Assembly: GCA_965205425.1 (NCBI GenBank)
Contig: CBDBGZ010000003.1
Span: forward strand, 1-43,012
Source of the DNA: Nitrosopumilus sp.
GTDB lineage: Archaea; Thermoproteota; Nitrososphaeria; Nitrososphaerales; Nitrosopumilaceae
Reading direction: 5' to 3'
Length of the DNA stretch: 43,012 bases
The position numbers and the translations under genes are program-made. Every line of letters begins with the position of its first letter. Positions within the stretch are counted from its first letter, which is position 1. Positions 1 to 7,825 of this stretch are shown here, in pieces. The notes beneath the pieces are model-generated. The model ran no database searches and was not told the DNA's origin. It saw only the letters and a program-made list of their open reading frames with translations.

Positions 1-159
1 TAACATTACCACACCAATTAATTACACTCGAGAAAAATTTCAATCATTTGGTGCATTGGGGGATGACGGCGTATTTTTTTGCAGATTCTATGATAAATCA
101 AACACAGACTCATTTCTTGATTTTTTAGAATCACTGCAGAAACAATTTGGTAAGAAACT
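1..159 (+). mobile_element. IS630-family element copy A, internal fragment (continues left of the window)
   Basis: 1..159 is the reverse complement of 391..549 with two synonymous differences (positions 82 and 85). It encodes NITTPINYTREKFQSFGALGDDGVFFCRFYDK..., part of an IS630 DDE domain. Confidence 0.9.
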
Positions 160-632
160 CGAACGTCTCCATTATCTAGTCTCTTCTGCATGTGTTTTCT
201 CATCTCAGTTCCATTTGCAAAGAATGTATTGGCATTACCATTTTTCTCTTCTCTCCACTGTACCTCAATTGGATTGAGTTCTGGGGTGTATGCAGGAAAA
301 TATCTTATGATTACATTTCTTTTTGATTTCTTGAGAAATTCTTTTACTCTGACACTTTTGTGGTATGATGCATTGTCTGCAAATAATAACAGTTTCTTAC
401 CAAATTGTTTCTGCAGTGATTCTAAAAAATCAAGAAATGAGTCTGTGTTTGATTTATCATAGAACCTACAAAAAAATACGCCGTCATCCCCCAATGCACC
501 AAATGATTGAAATTTTTCTCGAGTGTAATTAATTGGTGTGGTAATGTTATTGCCTGCAAGATACCATCCGCGCTTTATGTTAGGTGCTATCTTGTTTGTT
601 GACTCATCCAGACATAGTGTGGTGTATCCCAA
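156..632 (-). pseudogene. IS630 transposase ORF B (DDE domain), native C-terminus lost
   Basis: LDES...DNASYH...PAYTPELNPIEVQW motifs. The native ending (VVKLFKYLMP*, seen at 1370..1405) is replaced by read-through into copy A in the ORF track (to base 18). Confidence 0.85.
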
Positions 633-1186
633 TTTGGAATATTTTTTGATACTCCTTTTTGCGTTTTTTTAAAACGGGTTTGTTCCTCTTTTGAGGCTGA
701 TTTATGATGTGTGGGACGTGGTTTTTTTGATGAAAATCCAATCCTGTGCAGCAATTCACGCATTCCTCTTGCAGAGTATAGGGTGTTGTATTTTTTATTC
801 ACATGTGTAATTACCATTCTTGTACTCCACATGAATTGATTAAATCCAAACTTTTCTGGACCTGAAATCAGATCATTTCTTAATGATACTAGCTGTTTTT
901 CATTTAGAAAACATCTAGAACCAGAATATTTCTTGCGGCGTGATGCAGATATTCCCTCTTCATCCATTCGATTTAGCCAGTAGGACAGAGTTGATGGTAT
1001 GACATCCAGACTTGCACATATCACAGAATACGGAATATTTTGTTTTCTTAGTATTGCAGCCTTTAATCTTATCTTTGCTTTTGCATTTTTTTCATTCTTG
1101 CATACTTTTCTTAAAAAATTAATGCTTGTACCTTTCATGAATTGATTTCCAGAGGAAACCTTGGATTGTCTTGTACTCTTTGACAT
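587..1186 (-). CDS. IS630 transposase ORF A (HTH/winged-helix part), -1 frameshift into ORF B
   Basis: WSTRMV...YSARGMRELLHRIGFSSKKPRP motif; slippery TTTAAAAAAAC at about 663..673 (FKK); ORF B is in the -1 frame. Confidence 0.9.
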   Translation of the reverse strand: MSKSTRQSKVSSGNQFMKGTSINFLRKVCKNEKNAKAKIRLKAAILRKQNIPYSVICASLDVIPSTLSYWLNRMDEEGISASRRKKYSGSRCFLNEKQLVSLRNDLISGPEKFGFNQFMWSTRMVITHVNKKYNTLYSARGMRELLHRIGFSSKKPRPTHHKSASKEEQTRFKKTQKGVSKNIPNWDTPHYVWMSQQTR

Positions 1187-1268
1187 GGTTTCATGAATTG
1201 ATTCTACGATCTAGATCTTTTGAGTTAAAATACTTGACAGTTTATTCAAAATTTATATGCCTAAACTA

Positions 1269-1410
1269 TACAGTGGAGAGAAGAGAAAAATGGTAATGCC
1301 AATACATTCTTTGCAAATGGAACTGAGATGAGAAAACACATGCAGAAGAGACTAGATAATGGAGACGTTCGAGTTGTGAAATTATTCAAATATTTAATGC
1401 CTTAACTATA
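1269..1410 (+). mobile_element. IS630 copy A, 3' end with right terminal inverted repeat
   Basis: 1269..1375 is the exact reverse complement of 156..262. It encodes QWREEKNGNANTFF...DVRVVKLFKYLMP* and ends ATGCCTTAACTATA. Confidence 0.9.
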
Positions 1411-1525
1411 TCAAAGAAAATTAAAAACGCAGTTCAGAGTTCAAAAACAGAACAAGAACTACACAACAAGTTGTCTTCAATTTTGAGTGAAGCAACAAAC
1501 TAGAATTTTTTTCAACCTAGTTTTT

Positions 1526-1618
1526 TTATTTTTTATACTTGCAGTTACAACCAATCTCACAACTGCATTTACAACCATCTTTGCATTTATCAGAACAAGT
1601 ACAGCATTCATTTGTCAT
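1526..1618 (-). CDS. Metallothionein-like Cys-rich peptide, 30 aa (MTNECCTCSDKCKDGCKCSCEIGCNCKYKK)
   Basis: Hand-translated; 9 Cys in CC/CxC/CxxxC spacing, Lys-rich, almost no hydrophobic residues. ATG lies 11 nt after the stop of 1630..1980, with GAGTGA upstream. Confidence 0.75.
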   Translation of the reverse strand: MTNECCTCSDKCKDGCKCSCEIGCNCKYKK

Positions 1619-1629
1619 ACAATCTTCAC

Positions 1630-1980
1630 TCATTTTTTCTCCAAAAGTTTGTTTAGTTTTTCTGCAATTTCCTTGCTGTTATTTAATTCTAAAATAATTT
1701 TAGAATAAAAATTTGATTTTAACACCAACACTAGAAAATCATGTTTTCTTTTCTTCGTATACCAGAATTGTTTCTGTTTTCCCACAAGATATGTCCCAAG
1801 TTCCAATATTCGAGGAAGATTAGTCCCTGCAATCTTGAATCCCAATTGTCTGTGAGGAGATTCTGAAAATACCGATACTATGTTTTCATATGGAATGTAA
1901 AATGAGCCTTTGGCTGCTCCAATTTTTTCAAATACGTTAAGATTAATCCTCAAATGATCATCAAACAGAATTATTTTCAT
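1630..1980 (-). CDS. Hypothetical protein, bacterial PH-domain-like
   Basis: 116-aa ORF with KIAGTNLP...LGTY...FW pattern typical of PH-like hypotheticals. Confidence 0.7.
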   Translation of the reverse strand: MKIILFDDHLRINLNVFEKIGAAKGSFYIPYENIVSVFSESPHRQLGFKIAGTNLPRILELGTYLVGKQKQFWYTKKRKHDFLVLVLKSNFYSKIILELNNSKEIAEKLNKLLEKK

Positions 1981-1983
1981 TTT

Positions 1984-2439
1984 CTATGAAATCCATTGAT
2001 GTAAACTAAAGTATTTTTCTTTGTATTTTACCAAATTAGATTGAATATTCTCACCCATCCAATTTGTGTAATAGTTAGTTTCTGCAGTAGACATAGATAT
2101 CATAATGCGCAATCCCGTGCCTTCTTGATTAAACCAGTAAGAGTTTAAAGATTCATCAAACAATGTAAAGCCATCCTCTTCTAATGGTAGTTTTTGTTTT
2201 AATGCCATTTCTAGCATACCTTTGATTCGGGGTACGTCTTTGAGCTCCTCGTCAGTTAATTCAGTAATTGATTGAAAACTTGAATGCTCAAATATTTTAT
2301 TAGGCTCAGTTTCAGCATAATAATTCAGTCCGATGCCCTCAACATATGGGGAATAGCCGTTTGCTACAATGTAGAGATAAAATAATCCTATTACTACAAC
2401 AGGAATTATCGGAATCAGTATTTTGGTTCTAGTTTTCAT
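1984..2439 (-). CDS. Hypothetical membrane-anchored protein
   Basis: MKTRTKILIPIIPVVVIGLFYLYIV N-terminal hydrophobic anchor. Confidence 0.75.
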   Translation of the reverse strand: MKTRTKILIPIIPVVVIGLFYLYIVANGYSPYVEGIGLNYYAETEPNKIFEHSSFQSITELTDEELKDVPRIKGMLEMALKQKLPLEEDGFTLFDESLNSYWFNQEGTGLRIMISMSTAETNYYTNWMGENIQSNLVKYKEKYFSLHQWIS

Positions 2440-2549
2440 TGTTTTTTCCCACTTGCAGTGTTACGCCTCACAAGCTAGAATTTTGCATAGGAAGTTCATA
2501 AAGTGTTCTGCTCTTTACAAACAATAAATACAGATGTAAAATCGTTAAA

Positions 2550-3158
2550 TTGATGGATACATTTGATGCAATCAAAGAGCGTCGTTCTGTAAAACACTAT
2601 GATGTAAACCACAAACTTACAGATGACGAAATAGATCAATTAATGTCATTAGCAGTTTTATCACCAACTTCATTTAACATGCAAAACTGGAGATTTGTTA
2701 CAGTAAAGGATACTGAAACTAGAAAACAAATACGTGCAGCAGCATGGAACCAAGCTCAAGTAACTGATTCATCATTATTACTAGTAGTTTGTGCAAATTT
2801 GAAATCATGGAAGGATAATCCTGCACAATACTGGATAAATGCACCAAAAGAAGCTCAAGACTTTCTAGTATCTGCAATGGGTCCATTTTATGAAGGAAAA
2901 AACCAGCTACAAAGAGATGAGGCAATGAGATCTTGTGGAATTGCAGCTCAAACCATAATGCTTGCTGCAAAATCAATGGGATATGATTCTAATCCAATGA
3001 TAGGATTTGATCCTGACAAGGTAGCAGAGATTATCAAATTACCAGAGAACCATGTAATCTCTATGCTAATTGCAATTGGAAAACAAGTGAAACCTGCAAT
3101 GCCACGTGGAGGACAACTACCACTGGAAAAAATAGTCTTTACAGACAAATTCACATAA
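2550..3158 (+). CDS. Nitroreductase family protein
   Basis: RRSVKHY, SPTSFNMQNWRF and GYDSNPMIGFD motifs; start probably the ATG at 2553. Confidence 0.93.
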   Translation: MMDTFDAIKERRSVKHYDVNHKLTDDEIDQLMSLAVLSPTSFNMQNWRFVTVKDTETRKQIRAAAWNQAQVTDSSLLLVVCANLKSWKDNPAQYWINAPKEAQDFLVSAMGPFYEGKNQLQRDEAMRSCGIAAQTIMLAAKSMGYDSNPMIGFDPDKVAEIIKLPENHVISMLIAIGKQVKPAMPRGGQLPLEKIVFTDKFT

Positions 3159-7040: not shown

Positions 7041-7069
7041 AGGCATATTTTATGCCTAAAGATTGGGGT
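7041..7069 (+). promoter_or_regulatory. Palindrome AGGCATA-TTT-TATGCCT followed by AAAGATTGGGGT box, upstream of TATA (TATATA at 7088)
   Basis: Perfect 7-bp inverted repeat at 7041..7057; the 12-mer at 7058..7069 recurs at 8611..8622. Confidence 0.5.
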
Positions 7070-7114
7070 GAAAACTGGAAAACGCGCTATATACCAATAC
7101 GATATCATTCAAGC

Positions 7115-7825
7115 ATGAATAAACTAGTACCTGTTATAATGGCAGTGATTATAGTTGGAGTAATCTCAACATTTGCGTTATCTCCATACTTTACAGAATC
7201 AACTATTGATGAGGCATTACCAACTGGTGCAATTACTCAATCAACAATGGAAGACAAAGAATCCATGATGATGAAGGATGATGCTATGATGATGGAAGAA
7301 GAGATGATGAAGGATGATGCTATGATGATGGAAGAAGAGATGATGAAGGATGATGCTATGATGATGGAAGAAGAGATGATGAAGGATGATGCTATGATGA
7401 TGGAAGAAGAGATGATGAAGGATGATGCTATGATGATGGAAGAAGAGATGATGAAGGATGATGCTATGATGATGGAAGAAGAGATGATGGAATCTATTCC
7501 AATGTCATATGCAGGAGCATTTGTAGGGGTTGGTGATGGAGTTCATGATGCTCAAGGGGATGCATACACCATACCATTAGAAGATACTAGTAATGTGTTA
7601 AGATTAGAGAATTTTAAATCAACAAATGGTCCGGACTTGTATGTTTACTTGTCAACTGATGAAAATGCATCAGACTTTGTTAATTTAGGAGCACTAAAGG
7701 CAAGCAGTGGTAATCAAAATTATGATATTCCAGATGATACTGATCTAAGCAAATACAACAAAGTTTTGATTTGGTGTAAAGCATTTGGTGTTTTATTTGG
7801 TAGTGCAGAATTATCTACACAATAA
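7115..7825 (+). CDS. DM13-domain membrane-anchored protein with Met/acidic tandem repeats
   Basis: N-terminal TM; LRLENFKSTNGPDLYVYLS and VLIWCKAFGVLFGSA are DM13 motifs. Start placed at ATG 7115 (27 nt after the start of TATATA) instead of 7052. Confidence 0.9.
   Translation: MNKLVPVIMAVIIVGVISTFALSPYFTESTIDEALPTGAITQSTMEDKESMMMKDDAMMMEEEMMKDDAMMMEEEMMKDDAMMMEEEMMKDDAMMMEEEMMKDDAMMMEEEMMKDDAMMMEEEMMESIPMSYAGAFVGVGDGVHDAQGDAYTIPLEDTSNVLRLENFKSTNGPDLYVYLSTDENASDFVNLGALKASSGNQNYDIPDDTDLSKYNKVLIWCKAFGVLFGSAELSTQ
7268..7489 (+). repeat. Six perfect 36-bp tandem repeats encoding MMKDDAMMMEEE
   Basis: ATGATGAAGGATGATGCTATGATGATGGAAGAAGAG x6 plus a partial ATGATG. Confidence 0.97.

Follow-up and report, generated by a model that had tools for sequence, protein, structure and literature searches.

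Does a cysteine-dense reading frame that escapes gene callers encode a functional peptide in an ammonia-oxidising archaeon, and might that peptide be a metallothionein? The question is raised by a short minus-strand frame in the window, i.e., the whole stretch of 43,012 nucleotides analysed here, which is contig C3 of a 2.2-Mb Nitrosopumilus sp. genome (G000). The first-pass annotation had described the host as an ammonia oxidiser, and an archaeal amoA gene in the genome (E 2e-116) bears this out. Ammonia-oxidising archaea depend on copper enzymes. In one study the archaea tested were less well adapted to copper toxicity than a bacterial ammonia oxidiser (PMC13003922), and a 2013 review states in one of its passages that 'MTs are absent in archaea' (PMC3600143). 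The phrase 'archaeal metallothionein' was not found in the literature searched, whose coverage leaves out subscription journals and supplements; papers retrieved for metallothionein together with Nitrosopumilus or Thaumarchaeota report no such gene in their titles or the beginnings of their abstracts. Our comparisons indicate that the frame is a real, uncalled and selected mini-gene of a new Cys-rich family, mobile as a one-gene unit and probably metallothionein-like.

The ORF at window:1526-1618(-) translates exactly into the 30-residue, nine-Cys peptide that had been claimed. Its ATG at 1618 lies 11 nt beyond the stop, at 1630, of a co-oriented 116-aa gene, and the SD-like GAGTGA (1631-1626) stands 7 nt 5' of this ATG, both as previously described. 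The claimed CC, CxC and Cx3C spacing of the Cys residues is also present, with the repeated GCxC amounting to two units, and the core of the mini-gene reads C-x0-2-[CxC]-x3-C-x3-[CxCxC]-x3-[CxC]-K-Y. The frame is indeed uncalled: neither its 30- nor its 35-aa version occurs among ~15 billion predicted proteins, unlike both upstream neighbours, which are present there. The longer version begins at a further in-frame ATG at 1633, absent from the first-pass annotation, which overlaps the upstream stop (ATGA), has GGAG 5 nt on its 5' side and brings the peptide to 35 aa and 10 Cys. The proposed start at 1618 therefore holds only in part, since an ATG and GAGTGA are found there but the true start may be at 1633; the two starts cannot be separated by these sequence data (Table 1).

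Table 1 Features of the mini-gene locus, with positions in the window
Feature	Position	Strand	Remarks
Cys-rich mini-gene	1526..1633	-	35 aa/10 Cys from ATG 1633; 30 aa/9 Cys from second in-frame ATG 1618
GGAG within the terminal part of the preceding gene, possible ribosome site for coupled start	1639..1642	-	Sequence; putative function
GAGTGA, possible ribosome site for the shorter form	1626..1631	-	Sequence; putative function
A6T 7-nt direct repeat, copy 1	1632..1638	-	Covers start/stop overlap; joint of run X7 falls here
A6T 7-nt direct repeat, copy 2	1528..1534	-	Last codons and stop of mini-gene; sequence
Inserted block, three co-oriented genes	1538..2513	.	Site empty in seven relatives
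116-aa hypothetical gene	1630..1980	-	No Pfam/NCBIfam match; next gene differs in every close relative inspected
151-aa gene, MKTR start, N-terminal hydrophobic stretch	1984..2439	-	First gene of block; ORF list, comparison
TATA-like stretch at head of block	2480..2510	-	Resembles stretch directly 5' of G413 homologue; motif built from the G000 and G413 sequences themselves, a lead only
3' remnant of conserved ~115-aa gene, then T-rich tracts to ~1537	1408..1503	+	Split by IS630 copy; 5' part at C7:980-1228
IS630-type element (HTH and DDE_3 frames) with inverted copy of its end	156..1410	.	Outside cassette; domain matches, repeats
Nitroreductase-family gene	2553..3158	+	Right-hand host flank of insertion; locus comparison

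The mini-gene is a rare accessory gene, with clear homologues in 4 of 150 other genomes of the genus (G452, G413, G291 and G386; E 2e-11 to 8e-7, 66-85% identity). The genus search gave matches at E <=0.1 in 10 of the 150; the six weak ones reach E 0.002-0.07, and the three of them examined (L292-L294) turned out to be shadow frames or non-coding. A profile of five sequences recovered the same four homologues and one weak match in the genus, and two of the four plus a weak match in another genus (G241, E 0.008) in a family sample of 400 genomes; its one weak match in an order sample of 250 genomes (G539, E 0.007) has an internal stop and was rejected. An earlier single-protein search of 200 family genomes, a sample that did not include the true homologues, gave weak matches only (E 0.06-0.76), in 11 genomes. 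Among 1.84 billion representative proteins, HMMER found three homologues of 37, 35 and 102 aa, all unnamed metagenomic singletons, the 102-aa call containing a member when read from an internal Met. A word-index protein search returned zero candidates, although exhaustive HMMER gave these three, and six translations from the four relatives were absent from the protein collection. The rarity is unlikely to reflect search failure, because a search of the same type detects a 47-aa Cys-rich peptide, unrelated to this one, in 144 of the 150 genomes. In a single-gene IF2 tree of 15 genomes, several nodes of which have weak support, the five carriers are scattered, and no mini-gene match was found in the closest sampled relatives of G000 (G183, G162 and G375; 88% nucleotide identity). 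DNA pattern scans for the Cys spacing in genome and metagenome collections are uninformative on range: the matches listed are repeats or shadow frames, the one Nitrosopumilus match among them (L084) lies antisense to an Ala-rich protein, and of 199 Cys-pattern matches in viral contigs none was confirmed.

Judged from its codon pattern, the mini-gene is real and under purifying selection, with codon-by-codon conservation in a few related species. The selection test covers, in full, the 25 ungapped codons of the core in five DNA sequences. Variable columns there at codon positions 1, 2 and 3 number 9, 4 and 20 of 25, respectively (33 in total), and the third-position excess has a P of about 1e-5 with columns taken as independent. 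The pN/pS of the Cys frame is 0.16, a low value being favoured by the retrieval of the homologues through a protein search in this frame; the +1 frame gives 1.23 and the +2 frame, with 4-6 stops, 0.90. Values of 1.06, 0.25 and 2.11 are obtained for the antisense frames. Identity is 0.76 in the core versus 0.28-0.30 in the flanks. Of the 8 Cys columns in the five DNA sequences, 7 differ at the third position and only 1 at position 1 or 2; over all eight members, the core Cys is invariant in 7 of 8 columns, the exception being a Cys-to-Arg change in G291. The first-pass annotation had proposed looking for homologues with conserved Cys and synonymous variation, and both were found among the relatives. 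A DNA search of the genus matched across the ORF at E <1e-10 in G452 and G413 only, both intact. In the alignment of members, the downstream Met is present in G000, G452, G413, G386 and two metagenomic proteins. The upstream Met occurs in G000, G452 and G291 and again in these two proteins, whose gene calls start there; the ATGA overlap with the preceding gene is retained in G000 and G452.

Chance and assembly were considered as well. Only three ATG-ORFs of the genome have 20-50 aa, >=9 Cys and >=25% Cys, and the mini-gene is the sole hydrophobic-poor one among them (hydrophobic fraction 0.09, versus 0.29 and 0.36 in the other two). Sixteen Markov-simulated genomes (eight of order 2 and eight of order 5) contained one such ORF in total and none with low hydrophobicity. 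Contigs from three further runs (X4, X5 and X6) span all or most of the ORF with zero differences, so the mini-gene is no assembly error.

In G000 the mini-gene comes last in a block that begins with the 151-aa gene carrying the MKTR start and continues with the 116-aa gene. The block is bordered by a terminator-like T-rich tract on one side and the nitroreductase promoter region on the other. Seven of 11 related loci (G333, G419, G311, G375, G450, G436 and G269) have both flanks directly joined, so the block is most simply an insertion. Linkage to the 116-aa gene was examined and rejected: none of ten close homologues of this gene (>55% identity) is followed by the mini-gene, and each precedes another gene, often via the same ATGA overlap. 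A 5.3-kb contig from run X7 lacks exactly the mini-gene and is 94% identical elsewhere in the block. It joins 1512 to 1632 via 14 other letters; the 7-base A6T repeats flank both ends of the missing unit. Gain and loss cannot be told apart from this single contig. The mini-gene is present or absent as a single-gene unit. The G452 homologue lies within a row of genes with MKTR-like starts and is ATGA-coupled to the preceding one, and the next MKTR gene starts within the last codons (Tyr-Glu-Asn-stop) of the G452 and G413 homologues; two metagenomic members share these terminal Tyr-Glu-Asn residues. The G291 and G386 homologues stand alone among unrelated genes, which leaves the array context in 3 of 5 genomes. 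As to the arrays themselves, L322:1787-8921 (G452) has five near-identical MKTR-type starts and L323:8141-11820 (G413) has six, both with overlapping stop/start joints; in G452 and G413 together, at least one of these starts is followed by an early stop.

The surroundings of the insertion have features of their own. The IS630-type element (window 1-1410) has 26 further genome copies of >1,100 bases; the stretches 1-159 and 1269-1375 of the window repeat 391-549 and 156-262, respectively, in inverted orientation, reflecting either nested copies or a contig-end assembly artefact. Upstream of the nitroreductase gene, many relatives carry a three-gene unit, spread here over window 1408-1503 and G000:C7:980-2059, that encodes a regulator with a Cys-rich N-terminus, a 57-aa Cys-rich protein (about a dozen paralogues in the genome) and a ~115-aa protein with a Cys-rich N-terminal tail. 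Control of the mini-gene by this regulator, which lies across the IS element and which we take to be of the HxlR type, was rejected, as the regulator belongs to the host operon on the opposite strand. Elsewhere in the window, a DM13-domain protein (7052-7825) has a long tandem repeat rich in Met that may bind soft metals.

What the peptide does can be approached through its composition. Metallothioneins contain few or no aromatic and hydrophobic residues. All eight members have 31-37 aa, 23-29% Cys (8-10 Cys), no His, 0-3 I/L/V, 1-2 aromatics and CC/CxC motifs, and none has a hydrophobic export signal. Tyr is invariant in the family despite the scarcity of I/L/V, and an invariant Tyr is atypical of classical metallothioneins. 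The definition given in the accessible part of PMC9781358 (<100 aa, about 15-30% Cys, CC/CxC/CCC motifs) covers the size and Cys content of 8 of 8 members, and CC/CxC motifs are found and are conserved among the homologues. The best reading is a single-domain, single-cluster cytoplasmic metallothionein-like metal buffer, to which we give a little more than an even chance. Translation of the peptide is likely and probably coupled to the stop of the preceding gene. We predict that the nine conserved Cys of the peptide enclose soft metal ions (Cu(I), Zn, Cd) in a single thiolate cluster, which by analogy with beta-type domains would hold about three divalent ions on nine thiolates. Such a buffer would be expressed from whichever promoter heads the array, with no metal sensor of its own, and would supply extra metal tolerance or storage to scattered lineages; the gene may move when the short A-rich junctions between the stop and start of successive array genes recombine.

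Neither a metal sensor nor a metal transporter is a conserved neighbour in the five loci. An HMA-domain P-type ATPase gene lies ~7 kb from the G413 homologue only, and a CopD-like gene ~3.4 kb from the G386 homologue only; HMA-domain matches are absent from the carriers G000, G452, G291 and G386, and no DUF326/Csp match was found in the G000 genome. The mini-gene does not provide ammonia-oxidising archaea with a general copper buffer, because it is a rare accessory cassette without a conserved adjacent metal regulator. The earlier metallothionein-like claim is supported in part, as regards a real, selected and uncalled gene of fitting size and composition. Cassette neighbours in G452 and G413 mostly have N-terminal hydrophobic anchors, which suggests a surface rather than a cytoplasmic context and counts against a cytoplasmic buffer. 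The AlphaFold model lacks a confident fold (pLDDT 52), which would be expected of a metallothionein without metal and equally of any short peptide, and a Foldseek search with this low-confidence model found nothing and is uninformative. Five of five members have no Pfam family at E <=10, metallothionein families included; short members have no NCBIfam match, and PDB sequences offer none that is credible.

The first-pass annotation had likened the peptide to a metallothionein beta-domain. Like beta-type domains, as far as they are set out in the available text on molluscs (PMC7826182) and vertebrates (PMC3600143), it has ~30 residues, nine Cys and CxC units spaced by three residues, and its terminal x3[CxC] resembles the end of mollusc beta1, [CxC]x3[CxC]x3Cx5[CxC]x3[CxC] (PMC7826182). 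The Cys count is therefore upheld, but the spacing C-x0-2-[CxC]x3Cx3[CxCxC]x3[CxC] differs from that of beta1, beta2 and beta3 in the same text. Unlike the beta-type domains, the domain stands alone, has no detectable sequence homology to them and is only predicted to bind metal; since such homology is lacking, the likeness would be convergent. Small Cys-rich proteins that sequester metals are known from prokaryotes, on chromosomes and plasmids (SmtA/BmtA, PmtA and MymT; accessible part of PMC12193353). The present peptide differs from SmtA, PmtA and MymT as described there. SmtA has 56 aa and His ligands and is under the SmtB repressor, whereas the present peptide is shorter, has no His in 8 of 8 members, no Pfam match and no dedicated sensor adjacent; the ORF lists of G000 and the homologue loci contain no SmtB-type adjacent repressor. 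Language-model look-alikes, to be taken as leads only, score 0.84-0.85 and comprise Metallothio_5 and unnamed clusters. The top one, the dipteran metallothioneins of PF02067 (Metallothio_5), is similar in size (41 aa) and shares 183 of 256 features, with a score of 0.84 below the tool threshold of 0.9 and no HMM match at E <=10. As for its mode of transfer, the mini-gene resembles integron cassettes in being a single-gene unit gained or lost in co-oriented gene arrays, but its joints, viewed by eye, are short A-rich stop/start overlaps and not attC hairpins, and neither the window block nor any of the four homologue regions showed a recognisable integrase.

Fixed length and spacing, together with the invariant non-Cys residues S, G, G, K and Y, would also suit a structural micro-protein that binds Zn at one or two fixed sites, or has an Fe-S site, and exerts its effect on a partner, either a protein or a nucleic acid, as archaeal zinc-finger micro-proteins do; the genome has many other short zinc-ribbon-type Cys-rich ORFs. 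We consider such a role unlikely: the core contains no CxxC pair, nine Cys per ~23 residues are more than one or two tetrahedral sites would take up, the peptide has next to no hydrophobic residues from which a core or an interface could be built, net charge ranges from -5 to +4 across members, and no partner gene is conserved. It is quite unlikely, too, that the peptide serves as a cytoplasmic thiol redox buffer or a scavenger of reactive oxygen or nitrogen species, with metal binding secondary. A scavenger needs less than the strict Cys spacing observed, and the nitroreductase and the Cys-rich-N-terminus regulator across the IS element, which along with the high thiol density speak for a redox role, surround an insertion site found in G000 only and lie on the opposite strand.

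The anchored neighbours in G452 and G413, in an array of exported-protein genes, and a B12-binding radical SAM gene 4.7 kb from the G413 homologue recall an exported peptide, either disulfide-bonded and knottin-like or an enzymatically cross-linked RiPP core. This is very improbable, given that a signal peptide or leader is missing and the Cys number is odd in 5 of 8 members; moreover, the radical SAM protein at the G386 locus is a molybdenum-cofactor enzyme, none is common to the loci, and none was recognised near the G452 and G291 homologues (27 selected ORFs of four 17-kb regions scanned). Finally, the frame might be untranslated or no longer functional in G000, its conservation stemming from another frame or a DNA element. 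All five DNA homologues have an open +1 frame, which in G452 and G413 continues in frame into the next MKTR gene, and G000 is rich in IS elements. Against this, the +1 frame has the pN/pS of 1.23, the other low value (0.25) belongs to an antisense frame whose third positions are those of the Cys frame, stops interrupt the in-phase antisense frame in 2 of 5 sequences, and for three relatives it was the Cys frame that gene callers chose; we regard an untranslated frame as just as improbable as an exported peptide.

The metallothionein-like buffer may then be placed in a wider setting, though we rate the full proposal at somewhat less than an even chance. The mini-gene would represent a new archaeon-specific family of single-domain metallothioneins with their own Cys spacing, traded as a one-gene cassette of MKTR arrays between ammonia-oxidiser lineages; within an integrase-free cassette system, it would be the first cargo for cytoplasmic metal defence. 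If true, such a family would be a counter-example to the archaeal absence stated in that passage of PMC3600143. Its significance is limited by its rarity among relatives (4 of 150). Invisible mini-genes of this kind belong to the accessory cargo of ammonia-oxidising archaea, and a peptide of 30-35 residues is cheap to synthesise, which makes the metallothionein question directly testable.

Other small Cys-rich ORFs were noted in the same genome. The unrelated 47-aa, nine-Cys peptide (G000:C9:54814-54954(-) and C4:281983-282123(-); locus L342:1312-1455) is a candidate for a metal-binding peptide of the genus core; many of its matches there have 80-100% identity, and in most of the matched genomes a second match occurs, often within an open frame of ~460-520 aa. 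Kinship of the mini-gene to this peptide was rejected (hhalign probability 13%). G000:C4 280600-283600 and C9 53500-56500 form a similar, non-identical duplicated three-gene region, which may reflect 5% contamination or a second strain. Further Cys/His-rich ORFs of 31-48 aa lie at G000:C9:677516(+), C5:128397(-), C8:178830(-), C9:1165823(-) and C9:318607(-), the first of them with a look-alike in L010. Additionally, a convergent pair of Cys/His-rich ORFs of 33 and 38 aa is found at G000:C4:39540(+) and C4:39775(-) (L344:1041-1276), and look-alikes of both occur in L029, from another genus.
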